A stretch of 51,277 nt of DNA from Promethearchaeota archaeon (GCA_048940445.1 JBHLON010000025.1:1-51277); one strand, 5' to 3'. Positions 36,008 through 50,465 are shown, numbered from the stretch's first letter. Program-made: numbers and translations. The notes: generated by a model not told the origin, from the letters alone.

Positions 36008-37957
36008 TTATTTTGCTAGGTATTCATCTAATTTTTCATCATATGTATCCTTGTTTTTATTTGACTCAAAGAGATTTTCTATCAGAGTATTTGAAGAGTT
36101 CTCAATTGGTGTGCTAAGCACTTGTTTCGTTCGATGTTCTTCGATTTGATTTAAGAGTTTATATTCTGAGGTTTTTCCAAAGCACTCATATCCAAATTGA
36201 AGCATAAGCTCATCTACAAGATCTCGATAAATTATTTCCAAACTAGCATCATCTAATTCTACTGGTTTTTGATAAGAAGGAATAGCAAATTGGTTTCTTA
36301 AGTCTTTTCGCATATTTTTAAATTTATAAAATAAATATCCTACCATTATTCCATAGACTCCTAGCATCGTATAACTCAGTCCAATAAATGGCAGTAATAA
36401 GGTTGGTATTTGAGTAAGGGCAATCATAATTGTGAGCCCCCCAAATCCCGCAGGAATAAGCGAATAATACATAAGTTTTTTTTGAAATTCTTGATTAGTG
36501 TGCTGGTAAGTATCCTCCGTTTGTTTAGCATCATTATACTCTTCAATATATCCATGTTTCTGTTCTAAAAATTCCAATAAATCAGTTATTTGAGAAGTTG
36601 AAATGTAATGGATATTATAAGTTCTCTGATACGCAAAAGGGATGGACTTCTCCACATATTTAACTTCATTATTAGAAATGAGGATGGGATCACAATATAC
36701 AGATATAATTTCTCTAGCAGAAAAAAGTGTAGACTCATTTTTTACTACTTGGTCCTGGACCATATCTATTTTAGTCATTAAAAAATTCTGTATATACTGA
36801 AAGAAATTACCGTTAATTGCCATCTCCTCAGAAATTATCTCTTGAGCATGGATTAAGTGGGACATATAAGATTTTATCAAGAAGTTGTGTTCTGCTTCTT
36901 GCTGATATTCAATAATATCTTCAGAGATTAATAATATATCCTCTATCTCAGCTATTTTAATAGGAGTGATTAATAGAATTTGTTGTTCAGGTTTGAACAA
37001 ATACATTTTAAAGAATAAAAGATCAATCTCCTGAAGGAAAGTTTCTTGAATAATTTGGGTTGGAACAGAATAAAAACCCTCAGATCCTACTTCCTTAATT
37101 ATTTGATCATAAATTGTAATAGGCTCCTCTTTAGCATGCTTCTCCAGATCTTGCATTTTTGGGTACTTCTCTTGATCATGGAGTTTTTCTACTTCTATAA
37201 TATCGGATTCATGAGGTAATTCGAAAATGCTTCTAATATGTTTAACTTTCTTTTTAGATAGTTCCTTTTCAATAAATACTTCATCCTCTATAGTTGCGTT
37301 ATCTTCTTCAATAGTTTCTATTTGTTCTTTTTGCGCTACTTCTGCTTTTAGAAACCGTTCTTGATAGGAGAACTGATCATTCTCCTCCGTTGATTTTGAC
37401 TTAATATCCTGTGAGACTAGGGCACTTTCGCTTTGTTCTTCATTTTTCACTTCTTTAACCGTTTTTATATTTAATTTTAATTGTGGAGTGTTTATAGCTT
37501 CGTAATCATTTTTAAGCCCTAAATACTCCCGTGCAGAGAGGATAAATTTATTTGCAGTTTCTATCCCGATCCCCCTAACACGGGATAGTATTTTTGGAGT
37601 AGAAAATGCAATTTTATTTATGGTAGTGTATCCAGCGTCCCATAACTTTCGTTTATGTGTAGGACTTACACCGTTGACCTTAGTTAAATCCTCATACAAT
37701 ATTTTCTCTAGTATAGCATCATTCTTAATTGGAAAATCTGAAGATTGCTCAGTAAGCGCTCGAGAGATTTCCTCAAACTTGTTCTTCCATTCAATATTAC
37801 TGTCTAATTCTGACTTTCTTAACCCCTTTTTAGATAACTCAACAGCCTGATCTATATCTCCGGATTCCAATGCCTGTTGAGTCATATCATAAAGATAACT
37901 CAACTCCCATTTCTTTTCCAATGATTCTTGCATACTGATAAGAAGTTTGCTCCTCAT
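36008..37957 (-). CDS. Membrane-anchored helix-hairpin-helix (HhH) DNA-binding protein
   Basis: Tandem HhH DLTKVNGVSP...DAGYTT...SRVRGIGIETANK (RadA/Rad51-N-like), an acidic linker, a globular domain and two TM helices near the C-terminus. True start may be ATG 37933 (leaderless spacing from the TATA box). Confidence 0.75.
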   Translation of the reverse strand: MRSKLLISMQESLEKKWELSYLYDMTQQALESGDIDQAVELSKKGLRKSELDSNIEWKNKFEEISRALTEQSSDFPIKNDAILEKILYEDLTKVNGVSPTHKRKLWDAGYTTINKIAFSTPKILSRVRGIGIETANKFILSAREYLGLKNDYEAINTPQLKLNIKTVKEVKNEEQSESALVSQDIKSKSTEENDQFSYQERFLKAEVAQKEQIETIEEDNATIEDEVFIEKELSKKKVKHIRSIFELPHESDIIEVEKLHDQEKYPKMQDLEKHAKEEPITIYDQIIKEVGSEGFYSVPTQIIQETFLQEIDLLFFKMYLFKPEQQILLITPIKIAEIEDILLISEDIIEYQQEAEHNFLIKSYMSHLIHAQEIISEEMAINGNFFQYIQNFLMTKIDMVQDQVVKNESTLFSAREIISVYCDPILISNNEVKYVEKSIPFAYQRTYNIHYISTSQITDLLEFLEQKHGYIEEYNDAKQTEDTYQHTNQEFQKKLMYYSLIPAGFGGLTIMIALTQIPTLLLPFIGLSYTMLGVYGIMVGYLFYKFKNMRKDLRNQFAIPSYQKPVELDDASLEIIYRDLVDELMLQFGYECFGKTSEYKLLNQIEEHRTKQVLSTPIENSSNTLIENLFESNKNKDTYDEKLDEYLAK

Positions 37958-37971
37958 TTATAAAGAAAAAA
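37957..37971 (-). promoter_or_regulatory. TTTTTTC-TTTATAAA promoter of the membrane operon
   Basis: TATA 37964-37957 lies 23 nt before ATG 37933. Confidence 0.6.
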
Positions 37972-38001
37972 TCTGAATAATTTAGATATAGATCTTTCAA
38001 A

Positions 38002-38016
38002 TTTTTTCTTTAAATA
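38002..38016 (+). promoter_or_regulatory. TTTTTTC-TTTAAATA promoter of the Hel308-like helicase
   Basis: TATA 38009-38016 lies 26 nt before ATG 38043. Confidence 0.6.
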
Positions 38017-38042
38017 TTGAGGAACTCACGAAAGATTGTAGA

Positions 38043-48857: not shown

Positions 48858-50120
48858 TTATGAAGTTATAAGAGGTGGTCCTTTTACTCTCCAGATTGCT
48901 AAATTAAATAATTCATTTTGTTCTATTTGAGGATTGAGCACTAATTTTGGGGAATGATTATGTTCATTAACTAAATTATGGATCGCGAGTCTATCGACTG
49001 CTAACGATAGCAAAATTGGGTTGTTTTCTAAATCCCTAATTGCTAAGAAATAATATTCCATGGTATCAAACGCATTAAATACTTGTGTTCCACTACCTAA
49101 TTTAACCTCAATGATCTTATCCCTCTCTGGCACAATATCACATTCTTCCATACATTCTTCCATAAGAGCCCCTAATTTCTGCATTACCTCCTTGAGTAAG
49201 CCAGCGGACTTTACTAATGATATAAATCCTGGAATCCGAAATTGTTCAAATATTTTTCGTTCTACTTGTTTATGAATAGTGCTCATTCGGATATTTAACC
49301 TTTTGCAGATTTCACTTACGGTGATTGAGGCACTGGGTACACATAGAGCAGAAACAGAAGTTACCACTCCGGTAATAACGGTATCTTTCGTATTTTTGAT
49401 TACTTCCCAGAGCATATCTAGGATTTTTTTTGATTGATAATAGAAATACATACCCAACTCAAAACACTCAGTAATCTCTAAGATTTTTTGAGCTATATAT
49501 TCCTTTCTGTTCCTTTCTTTATACTCTGGTTTAAATTCATGAATTTGAAGTTTGAACGATTGGAAATCCCTCTTGTTAATATGAGAAACTTCTAATAAAG
49601 CGTGCTCATCTATAGGTTTACACTCATATTTACAAGTAAAGTAGATTACTAAAGGAATCAACTTCTCTGGAGTGCGATATTTTGTCCCACGCCCTAATTT
49701 CGAACGGATATCTACAAAGTTGTTAAATACTTTTTTCTTATCAGATTCAGGGAGTGACATTACTTCAAAAATGCGATTCATTTCTATCATCGCCTGTGTG
49801 TTGACGGTCTCATCATTAGACTTGAGGTTATCTAGCTTACTAAGACGATGTAACTTATATGATCGAGGATCCTTTAACCGCTCTTTTATCGACCCGATTT
49901 GTGTCTTTCCTATGGGGGCATATTGCACAATATCCTGATTATAAGGACGATGATATTCTAAAATCTGTAAATCAAGCATAACTCCACAATCTTTACAGAC
50001 ATAGCCTGACTCACTTTTAGTAACATTTTCCGAATCGCATATATCACACCGTAAAGGTGACTCCAAGCCTTTTCGGCTAAATTGAGATTTATTTAAACTT
50101 GCCAACTTACTCAAGATCAC
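48858..50120 (-). CDS. Divergent transcription factor B (TFB/TFIIB) paralog
   Basis: Zinc ribbon CDIC...YVCKDCG; two cyclin-fold repeats (YFTCK...; ITGVVTSVSAL); HTH ITVSEICKRLNIRMSTIHKQ; about 100-aa C-terminal extension. Confidence 0.8.
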   Translation of the reverse strand: MILSKLASLNKSQFSRKGLESPLRCDICDSENVTKSESGYVCKDCGVMLDLQILEYHRPYNQDIVQYAPIGKTQIGSIKERLKDPRSYKLHRLSKLDNLKSNDETVNTQAMIEMNRIFEVMSLPESDKKKVFNNFVDIRSKLGRGTKYRTPEKLIPLVIYFTCKYECKPIDEHALLEVSHINKRDFQSFKLQIHEFKPEYKERNRKEYIAQKILEITECFELGMYFYYQSKKILDMLWEVIKNTKDTVITGVVTSVSALCVPSASITVSEICKRLNIRMSTIHKQVERKIFEQFRIPGFISLVKSAGLLKEVMQKLGALMEECMEECDIVPERDKIIEVKLGSGTQVFNAFDTMEYYFLAIRDLENNPILLSLAVDRLAIHNLVNEHNHSPKLVLNPQIEQNELFNLAIWRVKGPPLITS

Positions 50121-50163
50121 AAATTTCCATTTATTATTAAGAAAAAGAAGATGGGGAGTGGGC

Positions 50164-50179
50164 TTTTTAAATCTTTCGG
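50164..50179 (-). promoter_or_regulatory. Canonical BRE-TATA (CCGAAAGA-TTTAAAAA) of the TFB paralog gene
   Basis: Purine-rich BRE plus TATA box, 43 nt before GTG 50120. Confidence 0.55.
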
Positions 50180-50450
50180 TTTGGATCGAAATTTCTAGGT
50201 AGAACCATTTTCCTCACAAGATAGACTTTTACACTTTTGTGAAAATGAGTGATTTTTGCATTATGAAGTGCACCCCTCCATGATCTGAATTGAGGAAATC
50301 AATTGTAAGATACTATTGTTCTTAAGAGAAGGTAAGTTTAAATTCATCAAAGGTCAGAAAAATGAGATTTTTTGATATGGGTATAATCTGAAGATTTTAA
50401 TTTTTATCGATTATTTTGACAAAAAAGTAACATAGCGATTATTTTTGATT

Positions 50451-50465
50451 TTTTTCCTTTATATA
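50451..50465 (+). promoter_or_regulatory. TTTTTCC-TTTATATA promoter of the membrane peptidase gene
   Basis: TATA 50458-50465 lies 22 nt before ATG 50488. Confidence 0.55.

Follow-up and report, generated by a model that had tools for sequence, protein, structure and literature searches.

What reads a promoter in which a run of T ending in C stands at the usual position of the A-rich element? A Loki-type Asgard archaeon raises this question in a 51,277-nt stretch of its DNA (hereafter the window), where nine genes or operons have T5-6-C(C)-TATA in common. The original prediction had described these sites as a distinct promoter class read by a different TFB, and all nine strings are present in the window sequence at the coordinates given in Table 1. 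In our reading, to which we assign a probability of roughly 0.65, they form a private promoter class read by the divergent TFB of the same island, within a sigma-like two-step cascade.

Table 1. Promoters, spacer and TFB-family gene in the window. Distances are the nucleotides between TATA box and start codon; bit scores are those of a PWM to which only other genomes contributed.
Feature	Coordinates	Core	Strand	Distance (nt)	Downstream gene or remark	Score (bits)
T-run promoter TTTTCCTTTAAATA (tTTTTCC-TTTAAATA)	29191..29205	29192-29205	+	56	358-aa gene 29262-30338; leadered	22.8
T-run promoter TTTTTCTTTATAAA	37957..37971	37970-37957	-	23	five-gene membrane operon, 37933 down to 30358	15.2
T-run promoter TTTTTCTTTAAATA	38002..38016	38003-38016	+	26	839-aa Hel308/Ski2-type helicase gene 38043-40562	18.2
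T-run promoter TTTTTCTTTTTATA	40587..40600		+	26	104-aa gene 40627-40941	16.1
T-run promoter TTTTTCTTTAAATG	41015..41028		+	41	80-aa gene 41070-41312	19.8
T-run promoter TTTTTCTTTATAAA	41791..41804		+	46	408-aa gene 41851-43077	18.0
T-run promoter TTTTTTCTTTTTATT	46331..46345		-	22	three-gene operon, 46308 down to 43110; leaderless	21.9
Variant T-run promoter TTTTTATTTAAATA (TTTTTA-TTTAAATA, A for C)	48746..48760	48759-48746	-	56	774-aa prenyltransferase-toroid-like gene 46365-48689	18.6
T-run promoter TTTTCCTTTATATA	50451..50465	50452-50465	+	22	261-aa M50-like membrane protein gene 50488-51273; leaderless	23.3
Canonical promoter of divergent TFB gene	50164..50180		-	43	purine-rich BRE ACCGAAAGA and TATA TTTAAAAA before GTG 50120
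Conserved G+C-rich spacer GCCCACTCCCCATCTTC	50147..50163		-		between the TATA box of the TFB gene and its predicted transcript start
Divergent TFB-family gene	48858..50120		-		420 aa with GTG 50120 as start; gene call with TTG 50066, 402 aa

The 50452(+) site has the highest PWM score in the whole genome. The membrane operon runs from a helix-hairpin-helix (HhH) protein to a 124-aa protein; its listed ATG (37957) overlaps the TATA box, and the distance in Table 1 is to an in-frame second ATG at 37933. The three-gene operon comprises a 193-aa gene, a 704-aa DEAD/ResIII helicase and a 184-aa gene. A similar string at 2423-2436(-), T8-CCC-TTTATATA, was not counted and scores below 13 bits with the other-genome PWM. 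As had been proposed, five sites lie 22-26 nt from an ATG (37957(-), 38003, 40587, 46331(-) and 50452) and five are placed between divergent genes (29192, 37957, 38003, 41791 and 50452); the four sites with longer distances to the ATG have 41-56 nt.

For comparison we used 72 Asgard loci taken around homologues of the 420-aa protein, with its recognition helix as one of two search seeds. The distance to the ATG in this set is bimodal, with 67 of 223 sites at 20-27 nt and 79 at 44-59 nt. On a separate contig of the host, the motif lies 76 nt upstream of the gene for an endonuclease-VII-like protein, outside the usual spacing. At 85 leadered sites the sixth position past the TATA box is always a purine, position +21 is a pyrimidine in 82% and position +22 an A in 92%, and at 65 leaderless sites the ATG starts at the position of that predicted initiator, 21-22 nt past the TATA box. 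In the window a purine is found at +6 at all nine sites and at +22 at eight of them; at 29192(+) the purine is followed by TA at 21-22 nt. A transcript start predicted at the pyrimidine-A 22 nt past the TATA box would place the octamer at about -30 to -23. The TATA-initiator spacing of archaeal core promoters (~22-26 nt, pyrimidine-purine) is thus found, in a statistical sense, whereas the A/purine-rich BRE adjoining the TATA box is absent and T5-6-C(C) fills its position, defining a new class. Sites were also retrieved with a relaxed pattern in which the core TTT(T/C)C is preset; among these a T stands just upstream in 97% and a further T in 76%.

Allowing at most one mismatch, the window contains 13 matches against 3.6 expected, a number reached by none of 100 shuffles. 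Exact matches total 31 in the 3.64-Mb genome, five of them inside 21 kb of the window. A genome-wide search against a background had been suggested as a check; the PWM from other genomes gave 55 matches of at least 15 bits, of which nine fall in 29.0-51.3 kb of the window where 0.34 are expected (Poisson P ~1e-10), so that the element is rare and clustered. The 72 loci contain 218 copies of the exact 14-mer, 48-fold more than the 4.5 seen in shuffles. Against our reading, the excess of the 14-mer over a backwards-read control is just 1.4-fold when whole genomes are counted (855 versus 607), and four genomes of the same family that lack the divergent TFB show a similar ratio (139 versus 98).

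Conservation upstream of orthologues, a check named beforehand, held. When promoters are selected purely by the orthology of their genes, the element is intact while the flanks have fully diverged. The motif precedes all 39 orthologues of the 193-aa gene (16 at exactly 22 nt), 39 of 44 of the M50-like gene, 26 of 38 of the 774-aa gene (21 strict matches, with the C kept) and six of seven of the 408-aa gene (all strict, at 48-51 nt), and it is found in 24 of 29 members of one further orthologue footprint set. Corresponding fractions are 5/5 loci for the HhH protein, 11/19 for the 80-aa gene, 5/12 for the 104-aa gene and, with the relaxed pattern, 3/8 loci for the 839-aa helicase; the 358-aa gene has no close orthologue among the fetched loci. 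The footprint of the 193-aa gene, aaTTTTT(T/C)CTTTTTAT, is kept down to ~30% protein identity. Before internal operon genes the motif was never found (0/36 and 0/36).

TATA octamers at promoter positions genome-wide carry no T-run, and the comparators cited in the original prediction, all three inside the window, do have canonical purine-rich BREs as described: rocD (CGAAAAC-TTTAATCT), the acylase (AGAAAGA-TTTAAATA) and the 4908 gene (CCAAAAA-TTTAATTA). Since no clean housekeeping-promoter consensus was obtained from the genome, the contrast draws on these examples and on the promoter of the TFB gene itself. The proposal of a distinct promoter class is strongly supported, the element being rare, clustered, absent from generic TATA boxes and of fixed geometry in dozens of genomes. 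We found no published description of a T-run promoter system.

The 420-aa protein has a CxxC-x13-CxxC zinc ribbon, two cyclin folds with a recognition helix gI(K/R)MSTI(H/Q)xQV, and an extra C-terminal alpha/beta domain of about 100 aa. Among 28 homologues C7, C10 and C27 of the ribbon are invariant and C24 nearly so, and M261, S262, T263 and Q267 of the helix are invariant. The Pfam Zn_Ribbon_TF match (E 0.005) is under the curated cut-off and the Pfam TFIIB model gave no match to the protein. A profile search against the PDB matched TFIIB cyclin 1, and hhalign against the host's canonical TFBs (probability 97.5%, E 7.5e-12) covered the ribbon and both cyclin folds, pairing the zinc ribbon stretch with the canonical ribbon and IRMSTIHKQV with VTEVTLRSRY. 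An AlphaFold model of moderate confidence (pLDDT 70.6, pTM 0.38) shows residues 84-175 and residues 187-274 each as a bundle of five helices; its top Foldseek matches are all TFIIB, Brf or TFB, and 1d3u_B aligns over 209 columns (target-normalised TM-score 0.66). On this profile and fold evidence the protein belongs to the TFB family, with its recognition helix rewritten. The canonical BRE-recognition helix, G-V/I-T-E-V/A-T-L/I-R-x-R, aligns with g-I-(K/R)-M-S-T-I-(H/Q)-x-Q, which retains neither of its arginines nor its glutamate; the protein is hence a divergent member and not a housekeeping TFB. It is single-copy in the host genome, which encodes eight canonical TFBs.

The canonical type of promoter before the TFB gene is itself conserved, as most of the 63 listed orthologous TFB genes have GGAAAAGG/CCGAAAGA-TTTAAAAR upstream, and in most orthologous loci the TATA box is followed by strings related to the spacer, for example gcaAACTCCtaCC. 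The T-run motif precedes none of 69 orthologous TFB genes, so positive autoregulation was not found; in the window a TTTTTC-TTAATAAT near the TFB gene (50146-50133) is not conserved. The G+C-rich spacer is a candidate operator that may control the TFB gene. A canonical purine-rich BRE combined with this conserved spacer leads us to propose a two-step cascade.

Of 25 sampled genomes in the host's GTDB family 21 have the divergent TFB, as against 0 of 125 elsewhere in the phylum, and of the four family genomes in which it is missing three have no 193-aa island gene either. Across the 72 loci the factor co-occurs with the promoters and its synteny with the T-run-driven genes is conserved; it is the only recognisable DNA-binding regulator to accompany them in all 72. 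This co-location suggests that it binds the T-run. Recognition helix and motif are both almost invariant, even in the more distant genus g4, and hence no covariation ties one to the other; the invariance of the helix is partly ascertainment because the helix was a search seed. That a different TFB is the reader thus stands as the circumstantial part of the original prediction: the TFB-family fold, the rewritten helix, the co-travel in 72 loci and the factor's own canonical promoter argue for it, and the eight canonical TFBs are possible readers as well.

The model that we propose starts from a second, dedicated core-promoter class, which consists of T5-6-C(C) abutting a TTTAWAWA TATA box with a purine 6 nt after it. 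TBP would bind this ordinary TATA box, and the second cyclin fold of the TFB, in which gI(K/R)MSTI(H/Q)xQV replaces G(V/I)TE(V/A)T(L/I)RxR, would dock on the T-run/C and not on an A-rich BRE, after which the zinc ribbon would recruit RNA polymerase. A housekeeping TFB, probably gated by a repressor, would make the private TFB, which would then turn on the T-run regulon like an alternative sigma factor. The class probably drives about 17-20 transcription units in the host genome, nine of them at 29-51 kb. The window set holds two superfamily-2 helicases, the membrane operon with its HhH DNA-binding protein, the M50-like protein and several unknowns, and T-run sites on separate contigs lie before the gene of an RPA-like OB-fold protein and before a small GTPase operon. 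The role of the regulon is probably DNA recombination, repair or transfer together with envelope functions.

The T-run/C could instead be a real, conserved cis-element with another reader, either an activator or repressor of the island or a canonical TFB with a possible cofactor, while the TFB-like protein is otherwise employed, for example as a co-activator in trans like TFB3. We regard this as improbable, at something under one chance in four. TFB3 is truncated and lacks the DNA-binding cyclin core, and we know of no TFB3-specific BRE, whereas the island factor retains the zinc ribbon and both cyclin folds, has its changes concentrated in an invariant recognition helix and is the one recognisable regulator in 72/72 loci. 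The element furthermore abuts the TATA box at invariant spacing, exactly at the position of the second cyclin HTH of TFB (PMC4581349). For another reader speak the eight canonical TFBs, the proteins of 80-124 aa and unknown function encoded by the island, the absent helix-motif covariation and the precedent of Sulfolobus TFB3, which acts in trans with canonical TFB and cannot replace it (review PMC7289017). Less likely still is a T-run without any dedicated reader, serving either as a structural A-tract, which would tune the bending by TBP of promoters that lack a BRE, or as an oligo-T terminator of upstream transcription. Archaeal transcription does terminate at oligo-T tracts, A-tracts do alter DNA shape and four of the nine window sites come after a co-directional gene, but the five sites in divergent spacers, the T preference upstream of the pattern-fixed core, the generic promoters of the host without T-run, and an element kept intact between diverged flanks, where a structural tract or terminator would tolerate variation, all argue against it. 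Chance similarity in a genome of 30% G+C, with ~23 backwards-read control matches per genome against 31 real ones and many exact matches elsewhere within coding regions, has almost no probability left and is refuted for the nine window sites by the clustering under an independent PWM, the excess over shuffles in the 72 loci, the fixed spacing to start codons and initiator, and the orthologous promoters with their blank internal-gene controls.

Reading of the T-run by the divergent TFB would have parallels in known systems. Canonical archaeal promoters, as in the P. woesei TBP-TFBc-DNA complex (PDB 1AIS/1D3U), share with the T-run class the TATA box, the geometry of about -30 to -23, the pyrimidine-purine initiator and the position, directly upstream of TATA, of the element that a TFB reads or, here, would read; in the canonical case it is the HTH of the second cyclin fold that recognises the upstream BRE, in the major groove, and determines the direction of the promoter (PMC7289017, PMC4581349). 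Both factors have a zinc ribbon and two cyclin folds. They differ in the element (A/purine-rich versus T5-6-C) and in the helix (TE(V/A)T(L/I)RxR versus (K/R)MSTI(H/Q)xQ), and the additional ~100-aa C-terminal domain and the failure to match Pfam TFIIB are found only in the island factor. In the DNA-damage response of Sulfolobales (Ups pili, Ced DNA importer) a TFB paralogue, TFB3, serves DNA-exchange/repair and membrane genes (PMC7289017), comparable to the helicases, HhH membrane operon, and RPA-like and endonuclease-VII-like proteins here. Unlike TFB3, the island protein is full-length and its DNA-reading helix is changed; the promoters here bear a distinct element, and the two proteins are related in sequence at family level only. 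TFB2 of the Sulfolobus acidocaldarius cell-cycle regulon is also a full-length paralogue associated with a specific promoter set; its targets include its own gene, and TFB1- and TFB2-responsive promoters are reported to have near-identical TATA boxes and similar BREs but different spacing (bioRxiv 10.64898/2026.09.06.749720). In the present system, by contrast, the composition at the BRE position is inverted, and the gene of the factor has a canonical promoter.

Bacterial alternative (ECF-type) sigma regulons follow a like logic, with a dedicated factor beside its targets, a private upstream element and, probably, a gated housekeeping-type promoter. The machinery here is TBP, TFB and archaeal RNA polymerase, however, with no anti-factor identified and no autoregulatory T-run promoter. 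For haloarchaeal TFBs no sharply distinct BRE consensus has, to our knowledge, been reported, in contrast to the single private factor and single sharply defined element of the present system, in which factor and targets are physically clustered. As they are cited in PMC7289017 and the TFB2 preprint, the multiple TBP/TFB combinations of haloarchaea (Facciotti 2007; Turkarslan 2011) embody the same idea of paralogous general factors partitioning promoters.

Whether TFB paralogues act as sigma-like readers of their own elements has been under discussion for more than two decades. Among earlier cases in the papers searched, haloarchaea show no more than some promoter specificity, TFB3 works in trans alongside canonical TFB, and TFB2 promoters have similar BREs at different spacing. 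Given that the element is clear-cut, conserved and easily mutated, and that one helix accounts for most of the difference between the candidate reader and housekeeping TFBs, the hypothesis is directly testable. The motif also offers a sequence handle on a full regulon of mostly unknown Asgard proteins, among them helicases, an RPA-like protein and a small GTPase, and would help to correct start-codon annotation, since ~30% of the 223 matched sites are leaderless-spaced. For one Loki-type Asgard family we lean, slightly, towards a true alternative-initiation-factor switch, in which a full-length TFB paralogue with its BRE-reading helix re-specified from A-rich to T-run/C would exclusively drive ~20 promoters for DNA recombination/transfer and envelope functions, gated by a conserved operator at its own canonical promoter.

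The promoter element under study, a run of five or six T residues and one or two C residues abutting a TATA octamer in the BRE position (the T-run motif), has the consensus T5-6, then C or CC, then TTTAWAWA. Every string listed in the original prediction was found in the window, and the leaderless spacing it had proposed for five sites (an ATG 22-26 nt past the end of the TATA box) was borne out by measuring the distances; the remaining four sites have an ATG 41-56 nt away. Five sites lie in divergent spacers, as proposed, and the promoters of rocD, the acylase and the 4908 gene, taken as canonical comparators, have the sequences first reported for them. 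In the 649-aa ORF of the HhH protein the first ATG, at 37957, overlaps its own TATA box (37933-37957, minus strand), and the gene likely starts at the in-frame ATG 37933, 23 nt past the TATA box, giving a product of 641 aa.

The window is one entire contig (C42) from a 3.64-Mb genome of 139 contigs with ~30% G+C. Its right-hand 22 kb (the island) encodes a membrane operon of five genes with the HhH protein first, a Hel308/Ski2-type helicase, three small proteins and a 408-aa protein without assigned function, an operon of three genes including a DEAD/ResIII helicase, a 774-aa prenyltransferase-toroid-like protein, an M50-like membrane protein and a 420-aa protein, the divergent TFB. A mobile-element or provirus origin of the island found no support: none of 10 island proteins has a PHROGs match, and the window lacks tRNA genes.

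Coordinates of T-run sites and associated features (positions without a contig name are those of the window)
Feature	Position	Detail
T-run site, leaderless	37957(-)	TATA end to ATG 23 nt
T-run site, leaderless	38003	TATA end to ATG 26 nt
T-run site, leaderless	40587	TATA end to ATG 26 nt
T-run site, leaderless	46331(-)	TATA end to ATG 22 nt
T-run site, leaderless	50452	TATA end to ATG 22 nt
String with three C's	2423-2436(-)	
Divergent TFB gene	48858-50120(-)	
T-run-like element in TFB promoter	50133-50146(-)	
G+C-rich spacer in TFB promoter	50147-50163(-)	
Three T-run promoters	C30:49492-53549	locus L011
Three high-scoring T-run sites	C124:1210-2115	4.5-kb contig, small proteins without assigned function
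High-scoring T-run site	C33:1174-1187	76 nt upstream of endonuclease-VII-like gene
High-scoring T-run site	C94:57084-57097	precedes gene of 763-aa protein without assigned function
High-scoring T-run site	C54:2433-2446	contig end
TATA-like string and spacer string	C105:5187-5204	
Single-repeat TBP-domain match (in 435-aa open frame) ~5 kb from canonical TFB gene	C21:2678-2893 and C21:7486-8034	

With at most one mismatch, the 14-mer that describes the motif exactly occurs 13 times in the window versus 3.6 times in shuffles. Genome-wide there are 31 exact matches, five of them in a 21-kb stretch of the window and three in a 4-kb stretch of contig C30; since a control in which the pattern was read backwards gives 23 matches per genome, the signal lies in the clustered matches, and most of those dispersed over the genome, frequently located within genes, are noise. 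A position weight matrix (PWM) was built from 257 sites in other genomes only, to avoid circularity, and this genome was then scanned. Scores of the nine window sites range from 15 to 23 bits, and 9 of the 55 matches of at least 15 bits fall within 29.0-51.3 kb versus 0.34 expected (P ~1e-10). Chance is excluded as the source of the sites. The promoter-positioned matches number 17 (nine on the window contig, three on C30, three on C124 and one each on C94 and C71), and two more strong matches, on C33 and C54, are not promoter-positioned. Generic promoter-positioned TATA octamers of this genome lack the T-run. A 'similar string' pointed out originally near the left end of the window reads T8-CCC-TTTATATA; it has three C's and scores below 13 bits with this PWM, its nearest minus-strand ATG is 119 nt away, and it probably does not belong to the class.

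De novo motif discovery by EM on 2,044 upstream regions yielded a weak T-rich/A-rich pattern and no usable housekeeping consensus, and base frequencies flanking generic TATA octamers were noisy, with only a small A excess at -8/-7 for leaderless spacing. With only 10 tRNA genes detected by ARAGORN genome-wide, tRNA promoters were unusable as a reference set. Exact 14-mer counts in 151 whole Asgard genomes, diluted by chance matches, did not separate carriers of the divergent TFB from non-carriers.

On C30, T-run promoters stand before three units: the gene of a 126-aa zinc-ribbon protein; a 177-aa ORF with the genes of an Arf/Ras-like small GTPase and of a 578-aa protein behind it; and the gene of an RPA-like OB-fold protein. 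In other genomes the orthologous genes adjoin the divergent TFB; despite this, C30 was rejected as a simple continuation of the window contig.

For comparison, 72 loci (1.16 Mb) were fetched around homologues of the 420-aa protein, the close ones all from Promethearchaeota (Asgard) MAGs. These loci contain 218 exact 14-mers versus 4.5 in dinucleotide shuffles. With the window included, 191 of 223 sites are followed in sense orientation by an ORF start no more than 200 nt away, and among the 223 the distance to the start is sharply bimodal, at 20-27 nt (leaderless, 67 sites) and 44-59 nt (leadered, 79 sites). Both groups show a purine 6 nt past the TATA box (91-100%) and a pyrimidine-A step at 21-22 nt; this A is not merely that of the start codon, since it also reaches 92% in 85 leadered sites. 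Counted from this step, the TATA octamer spans about -30 to -23, which is the usual archaeal geometry (PMC7289017).

The motif is found upstream of orthologues of the 193-aa gene (39/39), the M50-like gene (39/44), the 774-aa gene (26/38), the 408-aa gene (6/7), the HhH gene (5/5) and the C30 126-aa gene (24/29), and before none of the internal operon genes in two control sets of orthologues (0/36 and 0/36). Aligned upstream regions keep aaTTTTT(T/C)CTTTTTAT between diverged flanks, down to ~30% protein identity. The distinct promoter class that was originally predicted hence survives: its motif is absent from generic TATA boxes, clustered, and kept upstream of orthologues. A purely structural or terminator role for the T-run is disfavoured by the intact T-run and C at orthologous promoters, by the rigid juxtaposition of the element to the TATA box and by the sites in divergent spacers.

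Searched against Pfam, the 420-aa protein gave only a weak zinc-ribbon match and none to the TFIIB model. A profile of 28 homologues matches the first cyclin fold of TFIIB (PDB), and hhalign against six canonical TFBs of the genome gave a probability of 97.5% (E 7.5e-12) from the ribbon through the last helix. The top Foldseek matches of its AlphaFold model (pLDDT 70.6; 83-92 over the last helices of the second cyclin fold) are solely TFIIB, Brf or TFB chains, with a target-normalised TM-score of 0.66 to 1d3u_B. Profile, predicted fold and hhalign alignment together place the protein in the TFB family.

In TFB, promoter direction is set by the second-cyclin helix, which inserts into the major groove of the upstream BRE (PMC4581349, PMC7289017). 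In the hhalign alignment this recognition helix reads gI(K/R)MSTI(H/Q)xQ in place of the canonical G(V/I)TE(V/A)T(L/I)RxR. Its M, S, T and Q never vary within the divergent family, an invariance that over the 72 loci stems partly from ascertainment, the helix having been a search seed. Covariation of helix and motif was sought in the most distant subgroups and gave no link in either direction, both being nearly invariant across the family; in a more distant genus (g4) the helix is GIKMSTINYQV and the T-run motif is still present. The gene is single-copy in the genome, alongside eight canonical TFBs and one TBP. It occurs in 21/25 genomes sampled from the organism's own GTDB family and in 0/125 of other Asgard families (E <=1e-20); among the four genomes of the family where it was not found, three likewise have no 193-aa island gene, and the fourth has that gene at a contig end. 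The synteny of the factor and the T-run-driven genes is conserved in relatives. We infer that the divergent TFB is the probable reader of the T-run element. That another factor, either a canonical TFB or a separate regulator, reads it instead is a less likely alternative.

The two most distant homologues (L086 and L087; 31-34% identity, 307 aa) are without the C-terminal extension, have the helix ISMSNISKKF and show, ahead of their own and neighbouring genes, TATA boxes preceded by T-rich strings; they may represent a related yet distinct sub-system. The sole two-repeat TBP of the genome is on contig C59, and a single-repeat match is on C21.

In the promoter of the divergent TFB gene a G+C-rich spacer, GCCCACTCCCCATCTTC, separates the TATA box from the predicted transcript start, and related strings (gcaAACTCCtaCC...) come after the TATA box in most orthologous loci. 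The spacer may be an operator gating the whole regulon. A loose pattern search for it was too permissive to use; only one other place in the genome, on C105, has a TATA-like TTTAAAAAT followed directly by the spacer string GCCCACTCC, a match that may mark a further site for the presumed operator-binding protein or be fortuitous. The stretch that separates the canonical TATA box from the GTG start also contains a T-run-like TTTTTC-TTAATAAT, from which a transcript would start inside the 420-aa frame and fit the 402-aa TTG start; this element is not conserved (0/69 orthologues with a T-run motif there).

Full-text searches of the literature on Asgard promoters, the BRE and TFB paralogues turned up no account of the T-run system. 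TFB3 of Sulfolobales is unable to substitute for the canonical TFB and works in trans with it (PMC7289017), a mode from which the T-run system differs, as it does from TFB2, which has a BRE resembling that of TFB1, the difference between their promoters lying in the spacing. The working logic would be that of a bacterial alternative sigma regulon, here from TBP and TFB parts. The promoter of the divergent TFB gene itself is canonical in the window (ACCGAAAGA-TTTAAAAA) and reads GGAAAAGG-TTTAAAAR in most orthologous loci, with the T-run motif upstream of 0/69 orthologues. As this promoter is canonical and never of the T-run type, the arrangement points to a cascade and not to an autoregulatory loop.
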